Part shown: one piece after another, positions 6,888 to 48,748 of the stretch | How the letters are laid out: every line of letters begins with the position of its first letter | How positions within the stretch are numbered: position 1 is the first letter of the stretch | Source of the DNA: Catajapyx aquilonaris | Taxonomy: Eukaryota | Direction: 5' to 3' | Assembly (NCBI GenBank): GCA_000934665.2 | Contig: JYFJ02002224.1 | Span: forward strand, 1-60,836 | Length of the DNA stretch: 60,836 nt | Notes under the pieces: generated by a model | Databases searched by the model: none | The model's input: the letters and a program-made list of their open reading frames with translations, nothing else | What the model was told of the DNA's origin: nothing | Position numbers and translations under genes: made by a program

Positions 6888-8593
6888 TCATGTGGCTTTT
6901 CTTGGATGCGAGCAATCATGTCTTTTTAAAGCCATCGAGCGACTAAATGTTTTCCCACAAATATCACAACAGTAGGGTGTCTCTACCATGTGAATTCTGA
7001 CATGTGCGGAGAGAGCAGATGAACCACTGAATGATGCCTTGCAAAACTGGCAGGAAATCTTGTGCTTCTTGCGCATGTGTGATTCCAAATTTGATTTATC
7101 CGCATACGCTGCTTTCATGCAAATATGGCACTCATGTAGCTTTTCTCGGGTGTGAGGAATCATATGGTGTTCAAAATCAGTTGAGCCGCTAAACTCTTTC
7201 TCACAAATATCAGAACCATCAGGTTCCTCTTTCGTGTAAATTCTGACATGTGCAGACAGAGCAGATGAAGTTTTGAAGATTCCCTTGCAAACAGGACATC
7301 GAAATTGTCTCTCTTTAAGGTGGGTTTTCATATGGATATTCAAAGCATTTTGTTGAACAAATGATGCCTTACAAATCTGACAGCTAAATGGTCTCTCACC
7401 TGTGTGCAACCGCATGTGTATTTTCATATTATAATGTGATGCAAACTTTTTCTCACAAACATGACAATTACGCGACTTTTTTTTCACATGTCTCTTAAAA
7501 TGTCTTTCAAAATCAGTTGCGAGACTAAACTCTTCCCCACATATATCACAAGCGTAAGGTATCACTCCCGAGTGAATTCTGAGATGTGCGGTCAGAAGAG
7601 AAGCATCATCAAATGTTACCTTACAAATACCACAATCAAATGGTCTCTCACCAGTGTGGATTTTCATATGTGTTTTCAAATAAGATAAATAACTAAATGA
7701 TGCCTCACAAACTTCACAGCTACACTGTTTCCCCCCTGTGTGCTTGAGCATGTGTGTTTTAAGATCAAATAGATCATTGTACTTCTTATTGCAGACATGG
7801 CAATCATATGTCTTCCCTCCTGTGTGAGACGCAAATTGTCTTTTTAACTCCTTCCTCTTCTTCAAGTTTTCTTCATGCTGTTGTTCCTGCAATAAGCAAA
7901 AATAGACTGTTGGTACACTTTGCCATCATTACAGGTCAAGCAGTATTTTCTTTCTTCTTCCTTTCCTGGCCCTGTGCAGAGTAGGGAGTGCAATTCTGCC
8001 CCGGGATGTCGGGTGAAAAGCGGAAAAAGACTCGGCCAAGCAGAGGTGACAGGGACGGGATTTGAACCCCGGCCTCCCGATTGGCTGGCCAGTGGCGTAA
8101 CCACCAGACCACCATGCCTCCCTCCAAAATGTTATAACTTACGGGGTTTGCGCAATGGCGATAATGTAACATTAAATTCTAAATCCATCGTCAAAAAAAA
8201 GGATATGTCCACCTGGCATTCTTTTGTACTTTACGTAATTGATTTTTGAGGGATGCATGTATCATAAGCAACATGGACAATCATGCCTACCCTTGAAAGT
8301 ACCTCATGCATCACGTCAGAATGTATCTGATGCAGCGTGTGACGTACCTTACGAAAGACGCCATGTGAAATGTCTAACGGATCATGTTCAAAACGAGTGA
8401 CATTTGCCACAGCAACCAGTTCCTCTTCCTCCACTGGCTCCACTTTGACATCCTCTTCTCTGACGGCGGGAAGGCCCTCGTAGAAGGATGCAGAGGGCTC
8501 CTCCTTCAGCCGCAACTTCCAGTCCTCCTCCGTGGTGATGCTCCCTTCATCATCATCTTCTACAACCAATTCCTTTTTGATTTCCAATGACAT
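6888..8593 (-). CDS. C2H2 zinc-finger protein, family A copy 1 (acidic N-exon + 11 finger units, 2 degenerate)
   Basis: Exon 8593-8348 (MSLEIKKE...FEHDPLDISH) spliced in phase 0 to exon 7886-6888 with tandem CxxC..HxxxH fingers and TGERP linkers. Confidence 0.9.
7944..8122 (-). mobile_element. tRNA-derived SINE in ZNF intron
   Basis: Minus strand GGGAGGCATGGTGGTCTGGTGG (A box) ... GGTTCAAATCCC (B box), non-tRNA body, GAA-rich tail; absent from paralogous introns. Confidence 0.75.
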
Positions 8594-8810
8594 GCCCCTG
8601 GAATATAAACACAGTATGACTATGACATCTAGGAACACATGTATATTGTTTGTGTACCACTAGTGAACACTTGATATGTTAACACTGGTGGCCTCCTTCT
8701 TCCAACCCACCTGCTCATCCTTCCCACTGTTGCTTTGTGCCCGATCCTTCCCCAAATTGACGGAAAAGCGAAGGAAACTCAAAGAGAAGCAGCTGAAGAT
8801 GTCTTCTAAA

Positions 8811-8890
8811 GAGACGCCATCTTGGATCATGTGGGGGTGCATTCCCACCACCGCGCCAAACAACGGACAGGAAATGGCTTTAAACGCTAT
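8811..8890 (-). promoter_or_regulatory. Family-A promoter module (GGTGGGAATGCA ... CCAAGATGGCG, YY1/Pho-like)
   Basis: The same block recurs upstream of family-A first coding exons at about 15353, 21104, 24250, 27024 and 30088; AAGATGGCG matches the YY1/Pleiohomeotic consensus. Confidence 0.6.
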
Positions 8891-9248
8891 TTGAAGGAAC
8901 ACCGATAACAAGTCACTGCTACTATCACAGTATGACTGTTTACGTTGCCAATGAGTCTCACGCAGTACTTATTGTCATTTGCGCATGTCGTTTATTCTGC
9001 ATATTGTACAGAGCATTACATGGATATGAAGCAATTACAAAATTATTAACTTAACAAGGGTTTACAATGACTAATTGAAGCGGGTCTGGGGATTCAGAAT
9101 AAGACCACTCGTCGACGAGTGCTAGACCATGGGAGCTCAAATGACAGGAGATGAAATCATGGCAGCCTAATGCTTCTCTCCTCTGGGCTTGGGCATGTCA
9201 CTACTCAAACTTGATGGAAGGACACACTTTTCCTTGCAAGCCTAACAA

Positions 9249-10818: not shown

Positions 10819-11134
10819 GCCCCTGGAAAATAAACACAGAATGGCATCTAGGAACATGACATTAAGAATATTGTTTGTGTACTACTAGTGAACACTTGAT
10901 ATGTTAACACTGTGCTGCTTCTTGGCCTCCTCCTTCCGACCCACCTGCTCATCCTTCCCACTGTTGCTGTTGTGCCCAATCCTTCCCCAAATTGACGGAA
11001 AAGCGAAGGAAACTCAAAGAGGAACTGATGTTTAGAATTTTGTTGGTGATTACCATAGAAACAGGTGGTGTGAAGAACGGGTTCCACTGCTAGGGTTAGT
11101 AATAATAAATGACTTCCTTTTTTGGGGGGGAAAA

Positions 11135-11625
11135 TTTGATGCATGAAAATAATACTGTTACATGCGTGGACTTCACAAAGTGCAAAAAAAACAACAACTT
11201 TGGATTTGCAGTCTCTGGTACTGTACGTGGATCTGGCTGCTCTTCACATATAAGTGCAATTGATCAAAACAGGGTCCAATATCTTATTGCTAATTTGTAT
11301 GCAAATTGGCACACGTTTGTCTCTGAGCCTACTGACGATGAGGATGATCCCATTAGCCGTAACTCATAAAAGCCACGATATTAAGGTACATCAATGACAT
11401 GCACTGATATAAAGCGTCAAATTGTTCCATTACTTCTGTCCATTTTTCTAGAGATTAACCCGAAGTTGCAGAAGGATCAAAACAGAAGCTTTTCAGAGAA
11501 GGAAAAGGCGTCGCTTTCACCTAGGTGTCTTGCAATGGGCTGTTATCGACAGACATGCGGTGAACACTTGAGGCGGAGAGTGATTGGTAAAATACTTCCA
11601 TTACATGTAGTTTACTGCTTTGCCC
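11135..11625 (+). pseudogene. Degenerate partial copy of the Tc1-fusion gene (end of exon 1, intron 1, exon 2)
   Basis: GAGGATGATCCCATTAGCCGTAACTCATAAA...AAGGTACATCAA...ATGGGCTGTTATCGACAGACATGCGGTGAACACTTGAGGCGGAGAGTGATTGGTAAA matches 43419-43690; the 5' part matches about 42610-42750; frameshifted and truncated. Confidence 0.75.
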
Positions 11626-12003
11626 TAGAGCCTGTCGTGCTGTTAAGATGGGCCTGCCATCTACTATCAGTGCTCCAAGTTTCAGCACTCTCAGTAATCT
11701 AGGGCTACACAACTAGAACATATAATTAGAGAAACAATGCCGTTTAATCTGCATATTACACAGAGTGATACAGATATCCAGATATGACGCGATTACAAAA
11801 TTATTGCCATTACAAGGGTTTACAATGACTAATTGAAGCGGGTCTGGGGATTCAGAGTTAGACCACTCGTCATAATACACCACAGAGTGCTAGACCATGG
11901 GAGCTCAAATGACAGGAGATGAAATCATGGGAGCCTAATGCTTCTCTCATCTGGGCTTGGGCACGTCTCTACACAAACTGGATGGAACTTTACACTTTTC
12001 CTT

Positions 12004-12342
12004 TCAAGCCTGGCAATCATGTGGCTTTTCTCGGATGCGAGCAATCATGTCAAATGTTACCTTACAAATACCACAATCAAATGGTCTTTCACCAGTGTGG
12101 ATTTTCATGTGCGTTTTCAAATAAGATAAATAAGTAAATGATGCCTCACAAACTTCACAGCTACATTGTTTCCCCCCAGTGTGCTTGAGCATGTGTGTTT
12201 TAAGATCAGACGGATCATTATACTTCTTATTGCAGACATGGCGATCATATGTCTTTCCTCGTGTGTGAGACGCAAAATGTCTTTTTAACTCCTTCCTCTT
12301 CTTCAAATTTTCTTCGTCAGTCTGTTGTTGTTCCTGGCCTTC
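12004..12342 (-). pseudogene. Family-A ZNF pseudogene (copy 3)
   Basis: Finger exon with an internal deletion joining finger 3 to the end of finger 11 at about 12050; first exon missing, intron cut at 12398 by the THAP element. Confidence 0.8.
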
Positions 12343-12398: not shown

Positions 12399-13753
12399 AG
12401 TCTGTAATAGCAATACTCAGGCCTAAATGGACTTCTTGCAATGAACATTGGTACCGGTAGCTCACCTACGTGCTTTGTTGCGTTTCGCAGTTGATGTCAA
12501 TGGCCCCTCTGTATCCGGAATGCCTGCACACTTTTGCACCTCTTTAGAGATGCAAAGAGGAGGACATTCTGTTTGACTGCTCTTGTTAACTGTCTCCTTT
12601 ATGTCAGTTAAGCACTGTGTGAGTGCATTTTTCGTGGGCCTGATGTATAAATTGCATTGCACAGAAGCACATCTGAACCTCTTTTCATCTCTTCTCATGT
12701 CCTGCAAGGTGAAGGAAATAATAATGCCAAAGAATGGGGGTGACAACATGGGTTCCTAGTCAGCAAAGGGTGAGCATGGGTTCCCTAGTCACCTCTAGTG
12801 ATAGCCAATGTCATGCATCAAATTGGATATATGATGTGACAGGGATAGGTGTTATTGTTGTTGCAAGTACCCCCATTCGCCTCGTACCTTCTTCTACTGT
12901 ACATTGACTGGCAATAATGGAAATACACTAAGACACCTACCGGTGTACAGGTTGACAGATCGTCACCTGAACCTGTTGCAGATGGTGTGAAAGATGTGCT
13001 CTGTGGAGAAAAAATGGTGCACTTAGATAATGACATGTTCCAAATGTGAACTTGCCTGGTCGTGAAAGCACCTACCGGTGTGCAGGTTGACAGATCGTCA
13101 CCTGAAGCTGTTGTGGATGGTGTGAAAGATGTGCTCTGTGGAGAACAAATGGTGCACTTAGATAATGACATGTTCCAAGTGTGAACTTGCCTGGTCGTGA
13201 AAGCACCTACCGGCAGCATGGGGACAGCGTTGGCCTTTAGATACCGATTCTTCTGCCCTGGTCTACGAGGATGTATTGCCTGCTTGTCAAAGTGTTCCAT
13301 ACACACCCTATGTCTTAGCTGGGGTGCATGAGTTGCCGGTAAATTCAGCGATGCTAGCCATGCTTGCATCAAATCCGGATTGCCTCTGGGAAACTTGAAG
13401 AAACTGATGCAGTCGCCTGTTCTCCGTCGGCGACGACATACAACGCAAAAATCACTCCTGCAATGTCCACTACCAGGTGCTTCTTGCTCCGCCATGTCAG
13501 CTGCTGCAAGATCAGGCTTGACATGGAATTCGCCTCCTGGATTCTCGGCATGACCCCCCTATTTTCAATTCCTGCCGTTAGTGTATGTCGTGAACAGTAG
13601 CATACGGTTGCAACCGTATCCCCAAAATACGCTTAATGAGCTGGTTCCGCTGGGGTCATCGTTCATCGGAAAAATTCATTATTGGTGTCGTTGGAATCGT
13701 ATCGTTTTGCCCGATTTTTGGGGGCCAACTTGTATTTTGAGTGGAGTGTCCCT
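12399..13753 (-). mobile_element. Truncated Kolobok-like DNA transposon carrying a spliced THAP-domain gene
   Basis: Minus-strand terminus TTAA|AGGGACACTCCAC at 13757-13741 (TTAA target plus purine-purine end, typical of Kolobok); THAP ORF from 13495; other end not found. Confidence 0.6.
12462..13495 (-). CDS. THAP (C2CH) domain protein, element-encoded, 3' truncated
   Basis: CVVC...FFKFP...AW...RVCMEHF...LKANAVP is a complete THAP signature; followed by a 135-bp tandem duplication (probable intron + 60-nt exon) and a further exon from about 12701 (DMRRDEKRFRCASVQC...SSQTE). Confidence 0.7.
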
Positions 13754-17352: not shown

Positions 17353-17589
17353 GCAACATACAACCGCACACATGCAAATAAGCTTAGGAAAATGATTATT
17401 TAATTACTTTTATAATTAACATGAGCTGTTTTCACGCATGCGCTGAGAATGTCATGTGCTGATATAGTGATAGTATGTTGATCACATTTGTTATGCAGTT
17501 ACCAGTCTCTTGCCATCCGGATTTTTGAAGCAGAAGCCATGAAAAATGTGATTGACGATGTGTAGTAATGTTAGTAATAAAATTTGTAA

Positions 17590-18070
17590 AATTTGATGCA
17601 TGAAAATAATAACATGCATGGACTTCACAAAGTGCGGAAAAAAATACTTTGGATTCGCAGCCTCTGGTACTGTACGTGGATCTGGCTGCTCTTCACATAT
17701 AAGTACAATTTATCAAAACAGGGTCCAATATCTTGTTAATTTGTATGCAAATTGGCACATGTTTGTCTCTGAGCCTACCGACGATGAGGATGATCCCATT
17801 AGCCGTAACTCATAAAAGTCCATATAAGGTACATAAATGACATGCACTGATAAAGCATCAAATTGTTCCATTACATCTGTCCATTTTTCTACAGATTAAC
17901 CGGAAGTTGCGAAGGATCAAAACAGAAGCTTTTCAAAGCAGGAAAAGGCGTCGCTTTCACCTAGGTGTCTTACAATGGGCTGTTATCGACAGACATGAGG
18001 TGAACACTTGAGGCGGAGAGTGATTGGTAAAATACTTCCATTACATGTAGTTTACTGCTTTGCCCTAGAG
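17590..18070 (+). pseudogene. Second degenerate partial copy of the Tc1-fusion gene
   Basis: Near-duplicate of 11135-11625 with the same deletion junction; follows a family-C gene, as the intact gene does at 43 kb. Confidence 0.75.
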
Positions 18071-18455
18071 CCTGTCGTGCTGTTAACATGGGCCTGCCAT
18101 CTACTATCAGTGCTCCAAGTTTCAGCACTCTCAGTAATCTAGGGCTACATAACTTGAACATATAATTACAGAAACAATGTCGTTTATTCTACATATTACA
18201 CAGAGCGATACAGATATCTAGATATGAAGCAATTACAAAAGTATTGCCATTACAAGCGTTTACAATGACTTTTGATGGGGATTTGGTGATTCAGAGTTAG
18301 ACCACTCGTCATAATGCACCACCGAGTGCTAGACCATGGGAGCTCAAATGACAGGAGATGAAATCATGGTAGCCCAATGCTTCTCTCCTCTGGCCTTGGG
18401 CATGTCTCTAACCAACCTCCATGGAACTATACACTTTTCCTTGCAATCCTAACAA

Positions 18456-20871
18456 TCATGTGGCTTTTCTCGGATGCGAGCAATCATGTCTTTTTAAAGC
18501 CATCGAGCGACTAAACTTTTTCCCACAAATATCGCAACTGTAAGGTTTCTCTACCATGTGAATTCTGACATGTGCAGCGAGACCAGATGGACCACCGAAT
18601 GATGCCTTGCAAAACTGGCAGGAAATCTTGTGGTTCCTGCGCACGTGTTGTTCGAAACCTGTTCTAGATAACGTTTTCATGCAAATACGGCACTCATACA
18701 GCTTTTCTCGGGTGTGAGGAATCATATTGTGTCTAACATCAGTTGAGCCACTCAACTCTTTCCCACAAATATCAGAACCTACAGGTTCCTCTTTCGTGAA
18801 AAATCTGACATGTGCAGACAGAGTAGACGATTTTATGAAGATTGCCTGGCAAACCGGACATCTCAATGGTTCGGCTTTAGGGTGGCTTCTCATATGGGCT
18901 TTCCAATATTGTTGATAAACAAATGATTCCTTACAAATCACACAGCTAAATGGTCTCTCACCTGTGTGCTTGCGCATGTGTACTTTCAAAGAAGAAGAAT
19001 ATGCAAACTTTCTCTCACAAACATGACAAATATATGGCTTTACAGTGAGAGCTTCCACATGTCTTTTTAACTCTTTCCTCTTCTTCAAATTTTCATCATC
19101 AGTCTGTTGTTGTTCCTGTAATATGCAAAAATATACTGTTGGTATAGTACACGTTGCCATCATTACGGTCAAGCAGTTGATTTTTTTCAGAGACAGAGTC
19201 TTCCGATGTGTGCAGGAATGAAATATGGTTGTCTAATTCTCCTCAATCCAATTTGGCCAAACTAGGAAGGTCCATTGTTTACAATTATTATGCCTATTAT
19301 TTTAGTCTTTGTTCTGATAGTGGCCAAACAGTTACAGTCATCAAAAATTGACAATGTACTTTATGATGGGAAATATAATTATCTTCAAGTTCCCTTCCAA
19401 ACCGTTTTTCGTGAAATGAAAGGTTAAAAGTATTTTTGCCGCCATATTTGAAAGAATGCCACCGTAAGATGTGAGTGAGAAAATGGCTACAAATTGATTT
19501 GTTAAACCTTCTGATCATGCTTAACAACTTCCCACAAACAGATCAAAATGAACATGAAATATGAGGCAAACTTATTTTTTGAACAAATCTTCCCGAACTA
19601 TTAAACCCGAGATAATAATTTATCGAGGATTGACATTTTCTTGCTGACAAGATGGTGGCGGAATGCATGTTCGCATGTATGGTTGAGCTATTTGTGTACA
19701 AATTTCCCAAACCATAAGGCTAGGACACCATTATTGGCAGAGGGAGGGAAACCATACATTAGCCCTATGGCAAAAATTGTATTCAGGAATAATAAATCAC
19801 AATGTTAGTGTCCAATGTCCATGCAGCATGACAGTGAAATACCTCACGGAAGACTTCATGGGATATGCCAAAGGTATCCGGCGCAAACCGAAGAAGCCCT
19901 TCCACGCTGTCCGTGTCGTCCTCCACTGGCTCTTGCTCATGTAAGTCTCTGACAGCCTTCTAAGGAATACATGCATCACAAAAATCACGAAATTGATTGC
20001 ACAGATCTATCAGGAATACTGATTTAGGGCCGGTTGCATCGGTCGCGGTATATGGAACGGTATATGGAAGAACCCTGCATCGCGGGTACACGGTATATGC
20101 CATGAAAAACCACGGGTTTATTCCATAGCGTTGCACCGGTCCAGATAAACGGGGGGTTATCGGTAGAATGCTGGCCCATGAGAGACGTAAGCGGGCAAAA
20201 ATTTTGGAGAGCCCTGATTGGATCGCAGCACCCGTGACGCAAGCCGTGACGTCATGGAAGTATGGCTAGTCGTCTAGTACCTACGGCAACCACGTGGCAG
20301 GGTTTCCACCTGGTGTCACACAGTACACAAAATCCCAAGCACCAGTCCGCAACCACGACAACACCATAAACCCGCGGTACAAGCAACTTGTGCTGCAGGA
20401 TCGGCGGGTAGATGGATCCGGCAGTAAATGGGAGGGAGAACGGGCCATTTTAGAACAACCGTAGGTGGCGCAACACTTCTCACGGTATACCGGAGTCAAA
20501 ACCCGCCGTTTTCCATATACCGTGACTGGTGCAACCGGCCCTTACTGGAAATGATTACTACTTCTTGCTTATGCCTAGCCTAGTAATTTTTGTATCATGG
20601 CAGAATTTCCTAGACGCAAACAGTGACGTACCTCGTGGACGGCTTCGTGGGAAATGTCTAAGGGATCCTGTTCAAAATGAATCACATCTGCCACAGCGAC
20701 CAGATCCTCTTCCTCCACTAGCTCCACTTTGACATCCTCTTCTTTGACAGTGGTAAGGCCCTCGTAGAACTGCGTAGAGGGCTCCTCCTTCAGCCGCAAC
20801 TTCCACTCCTCCTCCGTGGTGATGCTACTTCCATCATCATCTTCCTCTTCTTCTTTGATTTCCAATGACAT
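18456..20871 (-). CDS. C2H2 zinc-finger protein, family A copy 5 (7 finger units)
   Basis: Exons 20871-20632, probable cassette exon 19959-19843, and 19115-18456; all phase 0; first four fingers absent. Confidence 0.85.
20027..20541. mobile_element. PIF/Harbinger (Tourist-like) MITE, 515 bp
   Basis: TIR GGGCCGGTTGCA(T/C)C(G/A)GTC(G/A)CGGTATATGGAA; TTA duplicated on both sides; empty site GATTTACTGG with a single TTA in the paralog at 26463-26465. Confidence 0.92.
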
Positions 20872-22071
20872 GATCCTGGAAAATAAGTCGGGTTACACAG
20901 TGTGACTATAGAAGCGAAGCACGGCCTGTCTCCATGGTTTGATTGCCATGGACACACAGACCATCCAGTTGCCCCACACCCTTTGGCCTCCTCCTCCTTC
21001 CAACCCACCTGTTCCCACTGCTCATCCTTCCTAGGTGCCTTTTCCTTCCTCAGAACGAGGCGAAAGAGAAGGAAAAATCAGACGAGATGCTCATCATCGT
21101 CAAGAGACGCCATCTTGGATTAGGGAAAAAAAAGAAAAAAAAGAAAAAGGGTGCATTCCCACCGCCGAACTATGGACGGGGATGGTATTAAACGCTACTG
21201 AGAAAAGAACAGCGAGAAGAAGTAACTGCTACTATCATAGCATGACTAGTAATGTGTAATGTTGGGAATGAGTGAGTCTCAGTGAAAACATTGAAAAGCC
21301 TTTAAAAATCGCATCCTGCCTCATTGAGATTTTCAAAGGCGACTTTTCTTTTCAGTTTCACTTAAAAATGGGACGAAGTGGTGCCAGAATCAAGTGTCCA
21401 AGATCCAAAAAAAAAAAAAAAAAANNNNNCAAAAAAAAAAAAAAAAAAAAAAACGGAAAAAAGTCATAATTGTCATTTGTGCGAAAATCTGTCTCCATAT
21501 TTTTAAAATCAAAACTGCTTGCTTTTTCATGTTCACACGTTTAGTGTTTATTAATTATCAGTTACAAGTACTTGAAATCGCCTGGTGAAAACACCAAAAG
21601 TGTGCAAATACCTCAATAATAAATACTGCACAAAATCACTTGCTAATATTACAATAACGGTTACTTCAAAATAGCGTTTCGAGCCAATCACGTCGCGTAG
21701 ACAAGGGAACGAACCAGCGTGGGTGTGAACGCACCCTCAAGTGTTTTTTTTTTTCCAAGATGGCGCCCGGATTATTCTCGTTGGCTTTGATCTGTCAAGT
21801 CTATTTTCCTCTTCAATTATTAATTATTTGCAGTGATTGACTCTTGGATTGGAGGGAATTAATATTTCAAAGGGGTGAGTACAGCTGGAGAGCTAATGTG
21901 GGTACATGTTTTGGTGGTGTAACGAGGGCAAGAGAGCGTGAAGAAACTGAAAGTGGAGAAAATTGAGGAAGGTTTCTTTGAAAAATAAAAGTTGCAGTTT
22001 ACACGAGGCTCTTGCTAGGAAAATTAGTGCAGTAATTAGCATGTGCATGTAATGATGTGTTTTTCAGGATC

Positions 22072-22314
22072 ATGTCGTTGGCGATCAAGAGTGAGTTGGA
22101 CGTAGAAGACGAGAGCATCGTGACGGAAGAGACTTGGAAGCTGGCACTGAAGGAAGAGACTCCGTCATGCTTTGATCCCGATTCGACTCTCATTCAGGAC
22201 ACCCTGAATGAAATTAAGGCCAAAGTGACAGAAGAGGAGATGATGGTTACTGTGCCATATGTTGCGGACAACGCGGAAGATCCGTAAGTCATTTATCATG
22301 AAGGAATCAGTAAG
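22072..22314 (+). pseudogene. Family-B ZNF first exon with premature stop; finger exon deleted
   Basis: MSLAIKSELDVEDE...DNAEDP* (TAA at 22285-22287 where paralogs have TTA); intron homology to copy B4 ends at 22500, where the mariner 3' end abuts. Confidence 0.8.
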
Positions 22315-22500
22315 GTACACTAGTCACAAACACCATGAAATGTATAGCGTAAAAATACGCACAGAATTTGCTTGGTATTGACATAACGAGGCTTCATAAA
22401 TATGTAATGCGGTCTCATATGTTTTCATCTATATGACTGAAATGAATGGTTTGCAATCAGACATGTTGGCATAACAGCATTAATTAATAATTATGTGTAC

Positions 22501-23735
22501 ATCTTTCAACTCAAACATAGTCCCCGTGGGCGTTGAGGCACTTGTCCCATTGTGACACAAGTCGCTGGATGCCGCGCTGGAAGAACTCCTGAGGCTGCTG
22601 GCTGAAGAACTCCCGGACAGCGGTTGTCACTTCCTCGTCCGAGTGGAAGTGGTGCCCCCGGAGTGCCTCTTTCAATGGGTCGAAGATGTGGAAGTCACAG
22701 GGTGAGAGGTCAGGACTGTAAGGAGGGTGTTCGAGGACTTCCCAGCCCATGTTGTGCAGGTGTGACTTTGTGACATTTGCAGTATCGGGCCGCGCATTGT
22801 CGTGGAGCAGAATGATTCCCCTGGACAGGCTGCCGGGGCGTTTGTTCTTGATGGCTCTGCGTAGGCGCACCAGTGTCTCATGGTACCGCTCCTTGTTTAC
22901 CGCCTGGCCTTGTGGCGAGAACTCAATGAGGAGGGGTCCTTGGTCGTCAAAGAAGAACGTCAGCATGACCTTGCCAGCAGACGGCTGCGTGCGGAACTTC
23001 TTGGTTGCCGGCGAAGACTGGTGCTTCCAAGTCATGGATGCCCGCGTGGACTCCGGCTTGTAGTGGTGGCACCATGATTCATCTCCCGCAACAACACGCA
23101 TGAGGAAGGAGTTGCCCTCTTGCTCGTACCGCTGCAGGTGTTGCAATGACAGGCTCATTCGCAACGTGCGTTGATCTGCGGTGAGGTTGCGTGGGACCCA
23201 CTGGTTACACACCTTGTGATACTCAAGGACGTTATTAACGATCTTGTACGCCGTGCCGTGACTGATGCATGCCTGCTCAGCAATCCTGTCGATGGACAAG
23301 CGCCGATCACTTTGAACCAACCCCTCGACGCACACTAGGCTTGCATCATTGGAGGCGGTAACAGGTCGGCCTGACCGTGCCATGTCCGACGTGCCTTGTC
23401 GACCACTGCGGAAATCGCGTACCCAGGCCTTCACTGTCGAGTACGCTACGCAAGTGTCTCCATACACAGCCCTCATGCGTGTATGAATCTCCTTTGGTCC
23501 CGCTCCCTCTGCACACAGGAACTGAATTACTGCCCGTTCGTCCGCCTTGGACGCACCTGATATGGTGAACGACATATTTGGACTGTGTACCGCAGCTATT
23601 ACGCAGCACACCGAGTCCACTCTTGGCCAGGTTGGCGACTGCGAATGTACCTCACAGCCAACCACAGCAGCACCTGTCTCCGTGTCACCTGCCGGCCTCC
23701 CGCGGCCAGGACGGGAACTTATTGACCTAACCTAA
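22501..23735 (-). mobile_element. mariner element with intact 354-aa DD34D transposase (ATG 23575, stop 22511); 3' TIR deleted
   Basis: WVPRNL, AGDESW, HDNARP, YSPDLSPCD (34-residue D-D spacing), N-terminal HTH and RSGRP; 5' end TA|TTAGGTTAGGTCAATAAGTTCCCG; no matching inverted repeat downstream of the stop. Confidence 0.93.
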
Positions 23736-24031
23736 TACAACGCAAGCATTTTAATATTTAATAGAAGCAGCATGACAGTAATGTATACCTTATGGGAGGC
23801 TTCGTGGGAACTGCCTAAAGGATCCTGTGCAAAATGAGTGGCACTTGCCACAGCGACCAGTTCCTCTTCCTCCACCGGCTCCACTTTGACATCCTCTTCT
23901 TCGTCGAGGCTGGTGAGGCCCTCGTAGAACTCTGTGGACGAGTGCTCCTCCTTCACTCTCAGCTTCCACTCCTCCTCCGTGGTGATGCTCCCTTCATCTT
24001 CCTCCTCTTCCTTTTTGATTTCCAACGACAT
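22511..24031 (-). CDS. Predicted chimeric gene: family-A acidic N-exon spliced to full mariner transposase (487 aa)
   Basis: Exon 24031-23789 (81 codons, phase 0), 57-nt intron gtatac...ttgtattag (23788-23732), then an open frame from 23731 through TIR/5'UTR (VRSISSRPGRGRPAGDTETGAAVVGC...) into the transposase; intact family-A promoter upstream. Confidence 0.6.
23738..23765 (-). mobile_element. Helitron 5'-end remnant
   Basis: TCTATTAAATATTAAAATGCTTGCGTTG matches the 5' terminus TCTATAATATTAAAATGCTTGCGTTG of the Helitron ending at 57483. Confidence 0.65.
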
Positions 24032-24614
24032 GCCCCTGGAATATAAACACAGTATGACTATGACATCTAGGAACACATCAATATTGTTTGTGTACTACTA
24101 GTGAACACTTGATATGTTAACACTGGTGGCCTCCTCCTTCCGACCCACCTGCTCATCCTTCCCGCTGTTTCTGTTGTGCCCGATCCTTCCCCAAATCGAC
24201 GGAAAAGCGATAAGGAAACTCAAAGAGGAGCTGAAGATGTCTTCTAAAGAGACGCCATCTTGGATTATGTGGGGGTGCATTCCCACCGCCGCGCCAAACA
24301 ACGGACAGGAAACGGCTTTAAACGCTACTTGAGGGAACACCGATAACAAGTCACTGCTACTATCACAGTATGACTGTTTACGTTGCCAATGAGTCTCACG
24401 CAGTACTTATTGTCATTTGCGCATGTCGTTTATTCTGCATATTATACAGAGCATTACATGGATATGAAGCAATTACAAAATTATTAACTTAACAAGGGTT
24501 TACAATGACTTTTGAAGGGGGTCTGGGGATTCAGAGTTAGACCACTCGTCATAATACGGCATGTCTCTACGCAAACTTGATGGAAGGACACACTTTTCCT
24601 TTTAAGCCTAACAA

Positions 24615-30337: not shown

Positions 30338-32444
30338 TTATCTGGGTCTGATCTTCATGGCTGCTCTTCTCAGAGAGTAACTCCATCCCTTCCAATGGTC
30401 CCAGTAGACACCTTGTTGAAATGGTGCGTCATGCTCTCCCTTGAGATAAAGTCCGTTCAGATTGGAATAGTGGCATCCAAAGTACCACCAGCCACCCTTG
30501 AACTCCTCTGCGCAGTTCAATCCAGTCGAAAGATCGCTGTCCCGGTCTTTTGTGGAGAAGGCCCGTCCATTGTGTTCGGCAAGAGAGTCCCCCGGGTCTC
30601 CTCCCGGTCCCTTCTCGTATCCCTCCACAGTGAGGTTGTACTTCTTCTCTTCATCTTGGACTCTAAAAGTGTGGTACAAGGCAACCCTCTCCTCCCCCTC
30701 CCAATCCTCCAGTTCCACCCGCAGCAGCATCGGAGTTGAAGGGTCACTGGTCAGTCCGTGGATGTTGTCCAGACCTATATAGGGTGAAAGTTTATACTAT
30801 TAGAAGATTTTGACAATAAAAAAAGTTAACCCAAACTTAAAAATTCTATGTTGATCCTTTTAAACCATTAAGGGCAGATATGGATATCTGGTGAATAACC
30901 TCACATCACCACTTTGAGTTCTGGTTCGTTGGGCCTGCCAATACATTCGTCTCCTGTGATGGTGACAATAAGTGATAAGAGTGCAACTCACCCAGCCAGA
31001 ACTCCCCTTCCAGATCACCAAACCCTCTCTTGTAGTCTGACCATCCACGGTTGAAGTCCACGTGAGGCTCGATGTCGTCTCTTCTTTGAATGACCGTCCA
31101 CCCTCCTCCATCCGACACCATATCACAGTACACCTGAGGACATGACGACGTTAGTTAGGCCTACGTAAATTCTAATAATTCCACTCAACGTATATAGCAC
31201 TCAATCATTCAGAGTAGTGACAGCGACATTATTTTTCCAGCGAGTCTCACCTCGACTTGTTTTCCAGATATGTTCACGGAATAAACTCCAGATGTACTGT
31301 GCCCTCGTTGCAGAAGGTCATGGCAACTATCTGCAGTAATTTCAGGGGGTGTAGGGTCTGAAAGAGAGTCTGAATCAGTCCTCAATCAATCGTCACAAAA
31401 CCGGAAATATTTCTGTTTATCAAACGTCTGCTGGAGCACCTCCATTAACATCTTTTCCCACTCTTTTAAAAGCATCCCTTACAAGCATTTTGCTCGGTTA
31501 TTGGCCACAGTTCCATTATCGCCGTGCCTATTTTCTGTATTTCTGTAGCTGCTGTATTGGTAAAAGACACAATTTCCCAACAGCTTTCCTTGCAAGGGTG
31601 TGAGTGTAACTACTATACTTTATAATAGCAAAAAATGTAAGTACAAAAATCCTATTAATATTTTCAACCAACGCACACAATACGTCGCATAAGCAATGAT
31701 CTATTTTCTTACCAGATGCGGTGGGGCTGACATCAGTTGCGTTGTTCACAATATCCGTCACCGATGAGGTTGTTGTGTCCACTGCATGGCTGGAATCAAT
31801 TGCAAGTATTTTGACATGTACTTAGGGGTCAACATTCAATTAAGCCACTGTTTTCCCGAACACACACAGCTTCATAATGTAACATGTTGGGAAAGGATGA
31901 TGGACTGTGATAGCAGCACAATATAATTATAATTTATACTATTCTACACTGTCTTAACTATTGGTCGCAATAAAAGCAGTTGGGTTGACACGGGGTTGAT
32001 GCCTTACCTCAATTTCACTTCTAATGATATTCTTTCTTTTAAGAATGCCAGCACTTCTTCTTTTAATGATTGCATTTCCTGTTTTGACGATTTCATTCCC
32101 TCTTCTAATGCTTCTTTTAGGGATGCCACTTCCCCCTTGATGTCTCCCACTTCTCGTGCTGCGGAATTTAAAAAGTAAGCGCATATTTAACGAACTTTAA
32201 CGAGACTTGATAAATATCCATCGGTCCCTTATTTATTACCTGATCGACCAAATCCATCCTCCATTACTCTGATCATTGTTTCCATGGCCAGTTCCAGTCG
32301 ATCTATCTGACATGTTTCCTTTGGATGGGTAGCACCGGTAGTATTTTCTGCTGCATCATTAGTCAGGGCCAGGGAATGATTGGCCCCTGACAGGAACAGA
32401 AGGGTGGTCACCAAATAGAGACCAAAACTGCTGGTGTGGGCCAT
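30338..32444 (-). CDS. Fibrinogen-related protein (FREP; tachylectin-5/ficolin-like) copy 1, 6 exons
   Basis: Exons 32444-32240 (signal peptide), 32158-32008 (coiled coil), 31789-31713, 31357-31251, 31133-30992, 30774-30338; motifs [42 protein letters not shown]. Confidence 0.9.
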
Positions 32445-34128
32445 CGTCTCTGAGGATGCTGCACTCGACTGAATCAGGACGACTCCTTTCTCCTTCAATC
32501 CCTTGGGGCGCACTGAATTAGTAGTGACATTAATTTTTGTGACCGAAGATAAAATATTTATGGTCAGAGGGCGATGCCTCATTATCAGCAGAGATGTCAG
32601 TGGGTTTATCGATATTATATCCCACTCCTTTTATCCTCAAATGGAACGTAAATCACATGTGTTATGGTTAGGAAATATCATGATCTGTGAACTTCCCTTG
32701 CCCACATTATGAGCATTGGTGTTGGTTGTCTGGAAGGGTCATGGGTCGCATGAGGGGGCCATTCCACTTTATATCTAGATAAGCCGTGGATGTTTACTTG
32801 ATGACCTTCACCAAAGTCGGGAGTTGTAAGCGGCAGTGATTCCTCTTTGATTTGATAAGGAGGGAAGTGGTAATGGCTTGGTGTAACTTTAATTCTTGGC
32901 GATTATGGCACAGTTCATCATTCATTATATCCGTCCAGTTTATTGGCATTTACCAGATATTTGCATTGAATAAAAACACTGGAAAAGGCAGCGAAATGCC
33001 AGATACTCGGAATGACAACTGGCAAATAACCCAACAGACTCTTTGGGAATAGGTTGATATAATTATTACACGCAAGGAGCATAATTATATTCAAGGTATA
33101 AATACCAGAAAATTCATGTGTGGGATAATGGCCAACAAAAGTGCAATTTTCCAGGAGAGCTAATATTGATGTTTGCACTCTCTTCAAAATCAAAGGGAAA
33201 GCTGGTTTTGCTCTAGTCCGTGTTGCCGTCTCGAGCATGATACCTGAACTTGGAGTACGTATATGCAAATAATTAAGCATATTCCTTGAAACAAAATGGA
33301 CCCTTTTTTCATCATGTGTACTATAGAACATATAGGTCACACGCTCATCAGATGATGCCATCTGAGCGAGAACATGATTCGCGAAAAAATGCGAATCATT
33401 CGACCTGTAACACTCCAATTTAGGCTCTATAATATGATCTATGTATGGAATGAAAATGTGATGCAGTTGAAAATATAGTGATTTTTATTGAAACCAGCAA
33501 AAAAATAATAGTACGGTTATGCAGGCATAATAATTATTATATGAAGACTTCCCATTTTGCTGTCACTGAAACTGTATCATTCCATTTCTGGAATTGCCAA
33601 CACTGGTTAGGTCTAGGGCGACAACTGGGGCGAAGGTGTGACAGGTATTTGCGTCAGTGAAAAGTCTGGTTTTTGTGCCTGCAGTACCGGAACAGAAGAC
33701 AAATCTAAGAATATTACATAGTGATAACATAACTGTACAGTGCGGGATAATTAGAGTTATCAGGATACCAGAGGACAGTAATACAGTATATGAGATTCTA
33801 CAATGCCTAATCAATGATTACCAACCAACAGACACGAAATTGGCCCGTGACGTAGCTCCAGTGACATAGGATTCAAGTTCAACCCTTTAAAAAACAGAGA
33901 AACACAATCACAATAGTAGGCCTAGTGTTAGATGATGATGCCCCAATTTGAGAGTAATGTGGTAAGTTTGTGTGATCAGTCACATTGGCATTGAATTGAA
34001 TTAATTAGATTGGCATTACTTAAAAAGAAACTACGATATACCCCACTAATATGCATACCTTATAATTATGGAAAAGGTGCAGGGAAGGGTGGTGAGTGTG
34101 ACAAGTGCAAAGAGTCATTACTAGTCGT

Positions 34129-36839
34129 TTAACTGGACCTGATCTTCATGGCTGCTCTTCTCAGAGAGTACTTTCCGCCCTTCCAGTGTTCCCAGTAGAC
34201 ACCTTGTTCGGATTGGCCGTGCTCTCCCTTGAGATAAACTCCGTTCAGATTGGAATAGAGGCAATATGTGTACTCCGATCCACTCCTGTACCACCAGCCA
34301 CCCTCGAAATGCTCTGCGCAGTTCTCTGCAGTGTTACCATCGTTGTCCCTGTCTTTTGTGGAGAAGGCCATGCCATTGTGATAGGCAAGAGAGTCCCCCG
34401 GGTCTCCTCCTCCCGGTCCCTTCTCGTACCCTCCCACACTGAGCTTGTACTTGTCCCCTTCTCCTCCGACCAGAAAAGTGCTGTACAAGGCGACCCTCTC
34501 CTCCCCCTCCCAATCCTCCAGGTCCACCCGGAGTCTCATTGGAGTGGAAGTGGTCAGTCTGTGGATGCTGTCGAGACCTATATAGAGTGAAAGTTTATCA
34601 ATATTATCATATTAGAATATTTTTAAAATTAAAAAGGGTTAACCCAAATTTAAAAATTCTATCTGTTATAGCAGCTCAGACCTTTTCCTTGACACAAAAA
34701 AAATGTAGGTAGTAATTTTCAATTTAAGAAAGAAAAGATATTATACTTGAAGGCGCCAAATACGTATACGTATCATATCGATCCTGTTGGAAGCAAAATT
34801 GGAAACAAGTTCAAACCGAGCCTTTTAAAACTAATTCGACCCCGCTCGTATATGTGAAATGGCAAAATGGAACTCATATGTCTTTAGACAAAATCAGTTG
34901 CAGCACGAAATGGTTTAATACTGATAAGTATGTCGTGTAGGCCTAATATAAAAGATGAGAAATTAATAATAACGGTCATCAGCCCTGAACTACTCCTTGA
35001 AGAGGAGCAACGATCACCAGTCAGCGATGTCAGTATATAGTGTTTTTGCGAAGGTACGTTTCCTCCGTAAAGTGTCAGTGAGGCAGATAACAGTCCAGTG
35101 GTGTGTAACCTTTGACCCTATGCCCCACCAGGTTCAACAGGAACTATAGGCACTACACCATCATGCTGTGTAATCGTGGCGGAATAATTTGTTTCAAAGG
35201 TTTGCATGTTGACCCTTTCAGACCATTATAGTGCAGATATCTGGTGAATAACCGCACGTCACCACTTTGAGTTGTGGTTCGTTAGGCCTGCCAATCCATT
35301 CGTCTGCTGCGACGGTGACAATAAGTGATAAGAGTGCAACTCACCCAGCCAGAACTCCCCTTCCAGATCACCAAACCCTCTCTTGTAATCTGCCCAATCT
35401 CGTTCGAAGTCCACGTGAGGCTCGATGTCGTCTCTTCTTTGAATAACCGTCCACTCTCCTCCATCCGACTCCATATCACAGTACACCTGAGGACATGACA
35501 GCATTAGTTAGGCCTACGTAAATTCTAATAATTCCACTCAACGTATATAGCATTCAATCATTCAGAGTAGTGACAGCGACATTATTTTTCCAGCGAGTCT
35601 CACCTCGACTTGTTTTCCAGAGATGTTCACGGAATAAACTCCAGATGTACTGTGGCCTCGTTGCAGAAGGTCATGGCAACTATCTCCAGTAATTTCAGGG
35701 GGTGTCGGGTCTGAAACAGAGTCTGAATCAGTCCTCAATCAATCGAGACGAAACCGGAAATCTTTCTGTTTTTTAAAAGTCTGCTATAGCACCTCCATTA
35801 ACATCTTTTCCCACTCTTTTAAAAGCATACCTTTCAACCAATTTGCTCGGTTATAGGCCACAGTTCCATTATCGCTCTGCCTATTTTCTGTATGTCTGTA
35901 ACTGCTGTATTGGTAAAAGACACAATTTCCTAACAGCTTTCCTTGCAAGGGTGTGAGTGTATAACTACTATACTTTATAATAGCAAATATAAGTACAAAA
36001 ATCCTATTAATAATTACAGCCAACGCACAGAATACGTCGCATAAGCAATGATCTATTTTCTTACCAGATTCAGTCGGGCAGACAGTTGCGTTGTTCATAA
36101 TGTCCGTAACCGATGAGGTGATTGTGTCCACTGCATGGCTGGAATGAATTGCAAGTATTTTGAAGAAATAATTAATTAGACACGTACTTAGGGGTCAACA
36201 TTCAATTAAGCCACTGTTTTCCCGAACACACACAGCTTCATAATCTAACATGTTGGGAAAGGATGATCGACTGTGATAGCAGCACAATATATTTTATTCT
36301 TCTACACTAGCTGTCTTAACTATACTGGTGGCAATAAAAGCAGTTGGGTTGACAAGGGGTTGCTCACAGGTTGCTCACTTATTAGGCCTACCTCAATTTC
36401 TCTTCTAATGATTGCATTCCCTCTTCTTTTAAGAATGCCAGCACTTCTTCTTTCAATGATTGCATTTCCTGTTTTGACGATTTCATTCCCTCTTCTAAGG
36501 CTTCTTTTAGGGATGCCACTTCCCCCTTGATGTCTCCCACTTCTCGTGCTGCGGAATTTAAAAAGTAAGCGCATATTTAACGAACTTTAACGAGACTTGA
36601 TAAATATCCATCGGTCCCTTATTATTACCTGATCGAGCAAATCCATCCTCCACAGCTCTCATCACAGATTGGATGGCCACTTCCAGTCTGTCTATCTGAC
36701 TGGGTTCCTTTGTGTGGACAGCACGGGGAATGTTTTCGGCGGCATCATTAGCCAGGGCCAGGGAATGATTGGCCCCTGACAGGAACAACAGAAGGGTGGC
36801 CAACAAATAGAGACCGAAACTGCTGATGTTGGCCATCAT
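34129..36839 (-). CDS. FREP copy 2, 6 exons
   Basis: Tandem paralog of copy 1 with the same exon layout; FBG motifs in the exon near 35345-35486 and in 34577-34129. Confidence 0.88.
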
Positions 36840-37942
36840 CTCGGAGGATGCTGCACTCGACTGGATCAGACGACTCCTTTCTCCTCAATCCCTTATTATT
36901 GGGGCGTACTGAATAAATAGTGACATTTGTGACCGAAGATAAAATATTTGTGGGGCAAAGGGCCCCATTATCAGCAGAGATGTCAGTGGGTTTATCCCAC
37001 TCCTTCCCCCCNNNNNNCCCGCTTCTTCCCCCCCCCCCCCTCAAACGGAACGTTGATCACGTGTGTTATGGTTAGGAAATATCATGATCTGTGAACTTCC
37101 CTTGCTTATGCGCATTGGCTGGCGTGGTTGTCTGGATGGGTCATGGTCATGGGTCCATATGATGGGGCCATTCACTATATATACAGGGTGTATCAGAGTC
37201 ACGGGTCAAGCGCGCGCGAGGGGCGCAATGTGATGCCGGATGATACTGATTTGCTTCAAATTGTATCAACTTATAGCAGATAAAAACTTGCAGACAAAAA
37301 GTGGAGCAGAATGGGAATTAACTTGGTAATATTAGACCACTTCACTCCAGCAACCAAAAAGAGCAGCAACAATCAAAGCAAGATCTTCCAACATACTGGT
37401 GGCAGATAGAGGGTTCACTTTTTCCTCATTTGGGACTGCCAGGGATGTGCACTGATCAAAAAAAAAATAAGAAATAATTGCCGAAAATCCCTGGCCATTA
37501 TTTTTAAGTAGCTGTTATTGCAGAGAATAGCTCTTTAATCCAATCACGTCATGTAGACGAGGGAACGAACCAGAGTGGGCCGTGAACTAAAGTGCGAACG
37601 CACCCCCAAATGCTTTCCAAGATGGCTGCCATATTCCCTCGTTATTATTTTCTGACCTGTCAAAGTCTTTTTTCCTGCTCATTATTATTTCCAGGGAATT
37701 ATTTTTGAGTTTTGAGCTGGAAGAAATAAAGTACAAAGGGTGAGTACAGCTGGAGGTAATGTGGGTACTGGTTTTGGTGGTGTAACGAGGGGAGAGAGTG
37801 TGAAGAAACGTGTGGAAATTGAGGAAAATTGGTTTCTTTGAAAATTAAAAAAAAAAGTGCAATTTTGCACGTGGCTCTTGCGAGAAAAATTAGTGCAGCA
37901 ATTAGCATGTGCATTATACTAATTGATGTGTTCGTCAGGATC

Positions 37943-38830
37943 ATGTCGTTGGCGATCAAGAGTGAGTTGGACGTAGAAGATGAGAGCATCGTGACGGAAG
38001 AGACTTGGAAGCTGGCACTGAAGGAAGAGACTCCTTCATGCTTTGATCCCGATTCGACTCTCATTCAAGATGCTCTGAATGAAATTAAGGCTGAAGAAAA
38101 GGAAGACGAGATGATGGTTACCGTGCCAGATGTTGCGGACAATGCGGAAGATCCCTTAGCCATTAATCATGAAGGAATCAGTAACGGCGCAGTAACGGGA
38201 GATACGAAGGGGAAGAGGAAATTTAACTGCCAATTTTGCAATAGGGAATTTGACAATTTGCGTAATATGAAACAACATGTAAGGATTCATACTGGAGAGA
38301 CGCCGTTTAAGTGTCCGGTTTGTGATAGAAAGTTTCGGTATAGAACTACTTTGTCGCGACACAAACTGACACACCCTGGAGAAACTACTTCTGAAATTTG
38401 TCAGGATAGGTTGATTGACTGTTGCGGTTTATCAGAATGCAAGGAGCTGGCTATAATGTGTGAGGAATTAAAATGCGAGGTTTGCAAGAGGAGGTTTCGT
38501 TGTCTTTCCCAACTGAAATCTCACAAGAGAAAACATGCTGGGGCGAAATCATTCAATTGCTCTGTATGCAATAATAAATATTCCCGCTCATATGGGCTGG
38601 CCCTACACTTACGGACTCACACTGGCGAAAAGCCATATAGTTGCCAACTTTGCAACAAAAAATTCACCAACTTATCTAATATGAAGAAACACATACAGAC
38701 ACATACAGGTGAGAAGCCATATTCATGCCAGATTTGCCTGAAACGGTTTGCCTCAAAGACGGATCTACAGAGGCACCTCCGAATGCACCGGAGTCAGAAG
38801 AGTTCTAGTCACCAACAGGACGCAATTTAG
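37943..38830 (+). CDS. C2H2 zinc-finger protein, family B copy 3 (295 aa, 6 canonical fingers, no internal coding intron)
   Basis: Single open frame from MSLAIKSE... through DPLAINHEGIS directly into fingers with TGEKP linkers. Confidence 0.9.
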   Translation: MSLAIKSELDVEDESIVTEETWKLALKEETPSCFDPDSTLIQDALNEIKAEEKEDEMMVTVPDVADNAEDPLAINHEGISNGAVTGDTKGKRKFNCQFCNREFDNLRNMKQHVRIHTGETPFKCPVCDRKFRYRTTLSRHKLTHPGETTSEICQDRLIDCCGLSECKELAIMCEELKCEVCKRRFRCLSQLKSHKRKHAGAKSFNCSVCNNKYSRSYGLALHLRTHTGEKPYSCQLCNKKFTNLSNMKKHIQTHTGEKPYSCQICLKRFASKTDLQRHLRMHRSQKSSSHQQDAI

Positions 38831-40051
38831 CTCCAAACGACACACAACACACGGAAGAAAAACCATTTAAACTGCATGCAAATCCTGCACATGAAAATGA
38901 TGGTGTTGGGTTTGAAAATGTGACCTAATATTTCTTAGATGAAAAGATTCTGGTAGGGGTTTCCCTAAAAATTAATGTAAGTTTTGCCCTGCTTTATACC
39001 CCATTTGTACCCATTTTGTTACAATTTGTGCGTTTAGAGCATCAATAATTTTTGTTAACCCGAGCAACTTGTGATTGGAAAGAGTAATCTTGATTGGTCC
39101 GGAAGACGGTTGTTGTCCAACGGGCCAGAAGTGCTGCACCCAAATCTGCTTCAATGGGATCAGATGCCTGGGCACCGTGCTGGCTGCCGACCTGTTGACC
39201 AAATAAAAAATCTGCTCTCGAAACTGACAGGCCAACGCAAATTAGTGTAATGAAATGCTATACGTGAGATAATTTATTGAAATGTGTGCTTTGATGTATT
39301 CTTTTTGCTCTGATCATTATGGAATTGAAATATGTATATTTGTGTGAGAGATAATCATTAAACAAAGAGTTCACTCTTGTGTATGGACACAGCCTATGAC
39401 ACTTCCATCACCATTTTGGTTGCGACTTGCATTAAAATTAAAATTGAGTATAACTGTGGAACAGGTATGCTTATTTTTTTCATGTTAGTGTTGTAGGTAC
39501 TGTACCAAAAATTGTAATCTGTACTCGAAAGCATATGAACAGGACATAAAAAGTAGGAAAATTATTACCTATTTGAAAAACATATTTCAAAAATTTAATT
39601 GCTATTTTTGAAAAAAAATGTAACAGGTCTTGCAGTAGCGGTTACTTCAGAATAGCGCTTTAACCCAACACATGTAGACAATGGGGAACGAACCAAGCGC
39701 GGTGTGAACGCGCCCAGATTGTTTTTTCCAAGATGGCCGCCAGATTTATTCGTTATTTTTTTTTTTGATCTGTTGAGTCTTATTTCCTGCTCATTATTTG
39801 TAGGGTAATTACTTTTTGGGTTGCAGGAAGGAAGTTACAAAGGGTGAGTACAGCTGGAGATAATGTGGCTACATATTTTGGTGGTGTAAGGAGGGAGAGA
39901 AACTCAAGGAAAATTGATAAGAAAAAGGTTTCTTTGAAAATAAAAAATTGAATATTTGCACGAGTGTCTTGCTTAAAAAGAATTAAGTGAGGTACTAGCA
40001 ATTAGCATGTAACATGACCTGTGTGTAGTAACTGGTGCACTTTTCAGGATC

Positions 40052-46833: not shown

Positions 46834-48748
<1,915 letters not shown>

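Follow-up and report, generated by a model that had tools for sequence, protein, structure and literature searches.

The stretch considered here is contig JYFJ02002224.1 of Catajapyx aquilonaris (assembly GCA_000934665.2), which was analysed over positions 1 to 60,836 and is referred to below as the window (60,836 nucleotides, nt). Near its middle, an intact mariner transposase gene lies immediately downstream of an acidic coding exon from a zinc-finger gene (family A), and the question that this locus raises is whether the two have been joined into a new host-transposase fusion gene or have come to lie in a common reading frame by accident. An initial annotation had described the locus as a SETMAR-like chimera that arose by nested events. 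The history of insertion and deletion implied by that proposal is supported by sequence comparison, but the chimera itself is possible rather than established, the frame, the intron length, and the promoter all being compatible with it. In our assessment the locus is probably a recent structural wreck within a fast-evolving cluster of C2H2 zinc-finger genes, and its fusion-competent frame is incidental, i.e., a neutral by-product. The parts of the locus upon which the question turns, whose anatomy and frames can be read directly from the DNA, are the following.

22511 to 23572, minus strand: full-length mariner transposase open reading frame (ORF), 353 amino acids (aa) followed by TGA, of the DD34D type; based upon Pfam, an alignment with Mos1, and a 10-sequence alignment.
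23573 to 23731, minus strand: 53 codons of terminal inverted repeat (TIR) and 5' untranslated region (5'UTR), a putative linker in the transposase frame; the sole open frame of three.
23732 to 23788, minus strand: candidate intron of 57 nt, GTATAC ... TATTAG, with splicing predicted only; based upon frame and splice-signal scoring.
23789 to 24035, minus strand: acidic coding exon of a family-A zinc-finger gene, coding from 24031 to 23789; based upon comparison with paralogues.

A Conceptual Reading Frame Joining the Acidic Exon and the Transposase

The acidic exon is coding on the minus strand from an ATG at 24031 to an AAG at 23789 (81 codons, phase 0), and it is followed by a GT at 23788 in the context AAG/GTATAC (here and below, a slash marks a boundary within a sequence). 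The sequence 57 nt past this donor reads ...GCGTTGTA/TTAGGTTAGGTCAATAAG..., and the AG found there belongs to the TTAG end of the mariner element. The candidate acceptor that had earlier been placed in the TIR is this AG, at 23733-23732 within ...GTA/TTAGGTTAGGTC, and it is the first AG more than 40 nt past the donor. From 23731 the minus-strand frame is open for 406 codons up to the TGA at 22513-22511, and a scripted join of these coordinates reproduced the fusion frame that had been described, giving 1464 nt that encode 487 aa with no internal stops, and an intron of 57 nt. The conceptual product consists of an 81-aa acidic domain, a linker of 53 aa, and the 353-aa transposase including its helix-turn-helix (HTH) DNA-binding domains; the transposon is sense-oriented, and a single ORF runs across the predicted splice junction in this conceptual coding sequence of 487 aa. 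In the genome, the frame of the acidic exon is the same as that of the transposase, with only one TAG between them, which is itself part of the acceptor. Unspliced read-through from the acidic exon reaches a stop after 99 aa.

The in-frame property of the fusion needs little luck. Within the 163 nt that precede the transposase ATG, the transposase frame is the only one of the three frames that is open from the TIR AG, and the linker frame was open in 504 of 5000 dinucleotide shuffles. Based upon this rate of open frames and a phase match in about one-third of cases, a fusion-competent frame would result in roughly 3% of the cases in which such an element inserts in sense orientation behind an exon. 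This fraction is small for one pre-specified locus but unremarkable over genome-wide insertions, and the locus described here was picked after the fact.

The Mariner Transposase and the Ends of the Element

The transposase starts at M54 of the 406-codon frame (position 23572), and residues 54–406 constitute a complete mariner transposase, the integrity of which is directly observed. In Pfam it matched Transposase_1 (1.6e-15; 57.2 bits against a cut-off of 24) and HTH_48 (6.2e-07), so that both a paired HTH and a catalytic domain are present, and it could be aligned with Mos1 (3hos_A; E 1.1e-48) over residues 13–352 of 353 against 12–343 of 345. The catalytic residues D217, D311, and D346 (406-aa numbering) do not vary across the alignment of 10 sequences and correspond to the GDE, HDNA, and SD positions of Mos1, with 34 residues between D311 and D346; the triad is intact, as had been noted. 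The native Met and the C-terminus, as well as the three catalytic Asp columns, are conserved in this alignment with nine relatives from the database. The transposase departs from these relatives at seven columns that are invariant among them (K188R, I213V, K229T, Q234T, V306I, H316D, and G351D), and the same count for the other aligned sequences ranges from 1 to 14. H316D is the change through which the motif reads HDNARPD, as previously remarked, and a His is present at this column in all nine aligned relatives. The changes H316D, G351D, K229T, and Q234T are non-conservative and may be those to be expected of an unconstrained copy; they could also be lineage-specific.

Searches for close mariner relatives in the protein database were negative, the best of 1532 matches (E ≤ 0.001) being only 60% identical, and a metagenome locus scan for the mariner matched 115 stretches, none of which was confirmed. 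A second copy of the mariner was not found in the window, either by tblastn or by a TIR scan. The element has a G+C content of 0.57 and a CpG observed/expected ratio of 0.81, the values for the whole window being 0.435 and 0.66, respectively. Its 5' end and the repeat in which it lies are placed as follows.

23706 to 23735, minus strand: 5' TIR region of the mariner, starting with TTAGGTTAGG; placed by the homology break at TA/TTAGG; supplies the AGs at 23733-23732 and 23728-23727.
23736 to 23765, minus strand: 5' end of an unclassified, Helitron-like repeat (TC start), which ends in the TA target of the mariner; based upon a 21-nt exact match to 57478-57458, extended.

The 5' TIR is bounded in the outward direction only, its inner limit at 23706 being nominal with a single copy in the window; the element begins behind a TA, and 163 nt separate its end from the ATG. 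The sequence 23765-23736 matches the start of the repeat at about 57484-57456, the match comprising an exact core of 21 nt and, upstream of it, a single 2-nt indel, and the similarity stops at TA/TTAGG. This break fixes the 5' end of the mariner within a base or two, and it agrees with an insertion of the mariner at a TA. Homology with the family-A intron ends 3–33 nt past the donor at this locus. The 3' half of the candidate intron had been attributed to the 5' end of a Helitron. Helitrons have a 5' TC terminus inserted after an A, a 3' hairpin with CTRR, and, in autonomous copies, a Rep/helicase; the repeat has a TC start that would fit such an end, and this follows an A in the copy at ~57484, but in the copy described here it follows a T at 23766. 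As a separate observation, the repeat copy at 57150-57484 (minus strand) contains several ATTGG motifs (reverse CCAAT) and a G+C-rich stretch, and it is located beside a poly-G run with one N.

At the other end of the element, the reported lack of a 3' TIR was confirmed, with no inverted copy of the 5' end in 21800-24600, and no copy of the terminal 30 nt of the mariner was found anywhere when the rest of the window was scanned with up to 9 mismatches. In place of two TIRs and a TA duplication, only the 5' end behind a TA is present. The element resembles an autonomous mariner of the Mos1 type in its 353-aa DD34D transposase, which is aligned end to end, and in its 5' end behind a TA; it differs from one in having neither the 3'UTR nor the 3' TIR, and its closest relative in the database is the one of 60% identity. 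Since the 3'UTR and the 3' TIR are missing, this copy is incapable of moving as a unit.

The Family-A Exon and the Deletion Junction

The sequences on either side of the mariner derive from two families of zinc-finger genes, A and B, which are convergent at this locus.

24240 to 24290, minus strand: conserved block with the predicted family-A promoter and 5' non-coding exon, including the motif CCAAGATGGCGTC; based upon an alignment of seven family-A copies.
24036 to 24148, minus strand: inferred 5'UTR intron of 113 nt, CAG/GTGGGT ... TTCCAG/G; the donor string is found in seven of seven family-A copies, with conserved alignment columns.
22508 to 22509: deletion junction, at which the mariner breaks off 2 nt past its stop and is continuous with the final bases of family-B intron 1; based upon alignment to 40276-40482.
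21649 to 22508, plus strand: convergent family-B fragment with promoter, exon 1 (22072-22314, in-frame stop), and intron 1, the finger exon missing; based upon alignment with a paralogue.

The window contains seven copies of family A, all of them on the minus strand, which share 65–81% protein identity (tblastn) and in all of which the exon ORF is intact. In the intact neighbours the acidic exon is apparently spliced to a C2H2 finger exon with an ORF of 321–345 aa (e.g., through the 461-nt intron at 8347-7887). The copy at the mariner locus belongs to the family by its acidic exon but is without the C2H2 finger exon: no finger ORF is present in the ORF list between the acidic exon and the family-B stump, in accordance with the loss that the initial annotation had reported. 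Its acidic exon is 85% identical to the closest paralogue by alignment (81% by tblastn) and shows three unique residue changes relative to the six paralogues (range among copies, 0–8). The sequence DPLGSS is confirmed to be a D to G change, the paralogues having DPLDIS (five of six) or DPLDVS (one of six). The acidic exon had no match in Pfam; neither relatives of it nor an annotated fusion carrying it were found among longer proteins (0 matches), and a profile built from 11 copies of the exon in the window gave 0 matches against 1.84 billion representatives.

Upstream of the acidic exon, the stretch 23786-24550 is 89.8% identical to 8345-9113. The gene was previously said to have kept its promoter and an 81-codon first exon. 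The promoter is indeed conserved and the 81 codons are intact, but as a non-coding exon and a 113-nt intron precede it, the 81-codon exon is the first coding exon and not the first exon. Two other observations concern the family-A copies. An ORF of 246 aa with a THAP domain (Pfam 5.2e-12) is located at 12818-13558 (minus strand), downstream of the copy whose exon is at 15123-14890. A tRNA-derived short interspersed element in the intron of the copy at 8348 was rejected, ARAGORN finding no tRNA in the window.

On the opposite side, the family-B stump (21649-22508) is 77.9% identical to 39630-40482. It can be aligned to 40276-40482 as far as TTTCA, the point at which G/exon 2 follows in the paralogue. 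With an in-frame stop in exon 1 and the fingers gone, the partner gene is dead, and the deletion was destructive on both sides. In a family-B copy elsewhere (37823-38830, plus strand), the acidic exon and the fingers form one ORF of 335 aa, while the paralogue at 40052-41197 (plus strand) has a 189-nt intron; this difference points to either intron loss or an in-frame deletion.

The junction at 22508/22509 (40482/40483 in the paralogue) lies within 1–2 nt of both the family-B intron-1 acceptor and the transposase stop. Such a coincidence with two landmarks is odd, and as the sequences on both sides of it come from repeated families, it could be suspected that an assembly error has joined multi-copy sequences (the mariner and the family-B intron) here or at 23735/23736. 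However, neither junction has an N run within 1 kb of it (the window holds four, the closest being that at 21425-21429), the form of the 5' junction is TA/TIR, as expected, and the two sides of the 3' junction have no repeat in common by which an assembler might be misled. An artefact of this kind is, in our view, very unlikely. The presence of two promoter-bearing gene stumps that face each other across the mariner also has the geometry of a transposon trap, in which the mariner would be transcribed in both directions, from the family-A promoter on the minus strand and from the convergent family-B promoter on the plus strand, so as to give rise to double-stranded or small RNA directed against the mariner family. 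This reading is a pure inference, however, and the family-B stump is ~22% diverged from its paralogues and carries a stop; we consider it extremely improbable.

Proposed Origin of the Locus

If the locus is a structural wreck, as we favour, the events that gave rise to it can be reconstructed from the homology breakpoints, which are directly visible. A repeat would have inserted early in intron 1 of the family-A gene, and the mariner would then have inserted into it in sense orientation, at a TA 30 nt into the repeat. Later, a single deletion would have begun 2 nt past the stop codon of the transposase and ended where intron 1 of the convergent family-B gene has its acceptor. This one event would account for the joint loss of the 3'UTR and 3' TIR of the mariner, what remained of the repeat, and both finger exons, that of the family-A gene and that of the family-B gene. 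What was left over would be the family-A promoter, the non-coding exon, the acidic exon, and then, 57 nt on, a transposase gene that is intact but immobile. Should the promoter be active and the weak AAG/GTATAC donor be used, the first AG to be encountered would be that of the TIR TTAG, and a 487-aa protein could be made. Any such chimeric transcript would be incidental, and the intactness of the mariner ORF would reflect the youth of the copy rather than selection for the fusion. From the arrangement we infer the order of these events, that the copy is young, and that selection is absent, and expression of the 487-aa protein as the main product of the locus appears unlikely.

A Tc1-Derived Gene with an Acidic Exon in the Same Window

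A gene of the same general design is present at 43263-44931 (plus strand). It has an acidic exon ending with DDPLAVTHKTPDK (DPL..H motif) and is predicted to comprise six exons, separated by five GT-AG introns of 59, 63, 53, 72, and 57 nt. The model encodes 454 aa with no internal stops, and a Tc1-like transposase is brought back into frame by each of the introns. The acceptor of the 59-nt intron is located just upstream of the native transposase Met, the linker being the former 5'UTR. The Pfam matches of this protein are sub-threshold (HTH_38, 1.5e-4; HTH_Tnp_Tc3_2, 7.8e-7; DDE_3, 1.8e-3), no Asp was seen by eye at the expected second catalytic position, and inverted repeats flanking the gene were looked for and not found. 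It is apparently an established fusion gene, which is old and domesticated, and it is probably the first fusion that was implied when the mariner locus was termed a second one. The notion that introns of 53–72 nt are absent from the window was rejected once this gene had been reconstructed: the short introns cited by the initial annotation are borne out, as inferred introns of the gene, and the candidate intron of 57 nt falls within their range. The introns of the zinc-finger families themselves are longer (89, 113, 189, and 461 nt).

The mariner locus resembles the Tc1-derived gene in its acidic exon with a DPL motif, its short candidate intron, a candidate acceptor upstream of the native Met, and a putative linker derived from a former 5'UTR. 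It differs from it in that the transposase ORF has no internal introns, the triad is intact, and the copy is apparently young. A broader proposal can be made from the two cases together, namely that two captures of Tc1/mariner transposases by a lineage-specific acidic effector exon took place within 20 kb, one giving rise to an old Tc1 gene with acquired introns and the other to a mariner fusion caught at birth, outside the tetrapods and with a partner other than KRAB; at present this seems to us quite unlikely. Copies of the end of the acidic exon, the 59-nt intron, and the next exon of the Tc1-derived gene, which are degenerate, interrupted by stops, and ~74% identical, are also found at 11314-11618 and 17766-18058 (plus strand), where they are part of a larger duplicated block (11131-12051 and 17588-18490) with 91.6% identity.

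Comparison with Known Host-Transposase Fusions

SETMAR, which is present in anthropoid primates, combines the SET gene with the transposase of Hsmar1; it is an old gene that has reached fixation, with a substitution at the third catalytic residue (DDN motif). Its birth, reportedly described by Cordaux and colleagues in 2006, is said to have involved capture of the mariner transposase by splicing past the host exons, the copy being immobilised by one damaged end. The locus described here has in common with SETMAR a mariner transposase past host exons and damage to one end of the element, and it differs in that the DD34D triad is intact. The known host-transposase fusions date back tens of millions of years. 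If expressed, the mariner locus would represent the earliest stage of this process, in which the triad is intact, the linker is still recognisable as TIR and 5'UTR, and the parental gene has just been destroyed.

A second precedent is KRABINER, in which, according to Cosby et al. (bioRxiv 10.1101/2020.05.07.082677), KRAB exons of bat ZNF112 are joined to a full-length Mlmar1 mariner transposase through an acceptor that pre-existed in the transposon, and whose steps of birth are termed 'reminiscent' of SETMAR. The same authors report at least 94 inferred transposase captures in tetrapods. Host-transposase fusions, including SETMAR, KRABINER, and these captures, constitute a documented way in which new transcription factors arise. 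KRABINER resembles the mariner locus in several respects: in both, a zinc-finger gene contributes its N-terminal effector exon, downstream of which a full-length mariner transposase with retained HTH domains lies in an intron in sense orientation, and the transposon provides the acceptor close ahead of the ORF, at the mariner locus by prediction only. In the account of Cosby et al., KRABINER is transcribed, has been conserved for ~45 million years across vespertilionid bats, was functionally tested, and needed a 1-nt deletion for its frame. The mariner locus, by contrast, has an orphan acidic exon in place of KRAB, and its frame needs no correction. In addition, as its parental finger exon is deleted, no alternative parental isoform is possible, unlike in KRABINER. 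If expressed, the locus would be a fusion of the KRABINER/SETMAR type that extends this pattern to a non-KRAB effector domain; if silent, it shows the ease with which intronic mariner insertions produce fusion-competent frames by chance.

Splice Signals and the Case for a Nascent Fusion

The candidate splice sites were scored with a local position weight matrix, which is crude, being built from 11 inferred, unverified introns of the window; the ranges given are leave-one-out ranges. The donor, with a score of 4.9 (range for the 11 introns, 4.26–10.01), stands at the 93.6th percentile among 6994 GT sites, and the acceptor, i.e., the TIR AG, with a score of 0.93 (range, −1.03 to 9.79), stands at the 78.5th percentile among 7073 AG sites. 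Among the 87 AGs of the next 1300 nt the TIR AG ranks 15th, and two of the 11 local introns have acceptors that score lower. The top downstream acceptor (exon start 23508; score 5.88) is 280 nt downstream and out of frame, and so is a second AG at 23728-23727, 5 nt past the first. The family-A donor is GTACG[T/A] in six of six paralogues, the copy at the mariner locus alone having GTATAC. The suggestion that this donor is dead for want of a G at position +5 was rejected, as the family-B donor GTACAC and all five donors of the short introns in the Tc1-derived gene also have no +5G. Neither AATAAA nor ATTAAA is present within 610 nt after the transposase stop, the first being at 959 nt. Overall, the splice signals appear to be permissive but weak, at the low end of the local range.

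These signals bear upon the reading that the locus is a nascent host-transposase fusion, in which the family-A promoter would drive an acidic exon that is spliced to the TIR acceptor, and the resulting 487-aa protein would tether an acidic effector to mariner TIRs by means of its HTH domains, the copy being immobilised. The conceptual coding sequence without internal stops, an intron length within the 53–72 nt range seen locally, splice signals that lie within range if at its low end, a conserved promoter and upstream intron, intact DNA-binding and catalytic domains, and the absence of the 3' TIR are all consistent with such a fusion, as are the sister architecture of acidic exon and Tc1-like transposase in the same window and the precedents of KRABINER and SETMAR. 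On the other hand, the stronger acceptor at 23508 and the AG that follows the first by 5 nt are both out of frame, the donor is weakened relative to all six paralogues, no canonical poly(A) signal is near, and H316D and G351D affect columns that are otherwise invariant. We regard a nascent fusion as possible but doubtful.

A number of observations nevertheless weigh against the interpretation that we favour, in which the locus is a wreck and its frame incidental. The donors of the five short introns in the Tc1-derived gene (GTACAT, GTAAAT, GTAAAT, GTAATT, and GTAATA) likewise have no +5G, and because of these donors and of the two acceptors that score below the candidate, the candidate splice site is no outlier. 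The Tc1-derived gene being of the same design, it is probable that an exon of this kind has successfully captured a transposase once before in the window. According to published work, transposons often have a usable acceptor immediately ahead of the transposase ORF, as in eight of nine cases (10.1101/2020.05.07.082677). At the mariner locus, the family-A promoter, non-coding exon, and exon-1 ORF are free of decay. Lastly, the deletion stops 2 nt short of the transposase ORF, which is unlikely for a random breakpoint unless it is due to ascertainment.

Other Features of the Window

Fibrinogen-related genes are located in duplicated blocks at 30338-32630 (minus strand), 34129-34611 (minus strand), 48242-48748 (plus strand), and 59335-59802 (plus strand), with inferred introns of 117 and 217 nt; one of their exons matches Fibrinogen_C with a value of 2.9e-43. 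A single-exon ORF of 673 aa at 50778-52796 (minus strand) has a match to Lig_chan (6.6e-06; 26.4 bits) that is below the cut-off of 30.8, and it has no protein relatives at 1e-10. Lastly, an ORF fragment at 1963-2349 (minus strand) contains the start of a caspase domain (Peptidase_C14, 2.6e-11).

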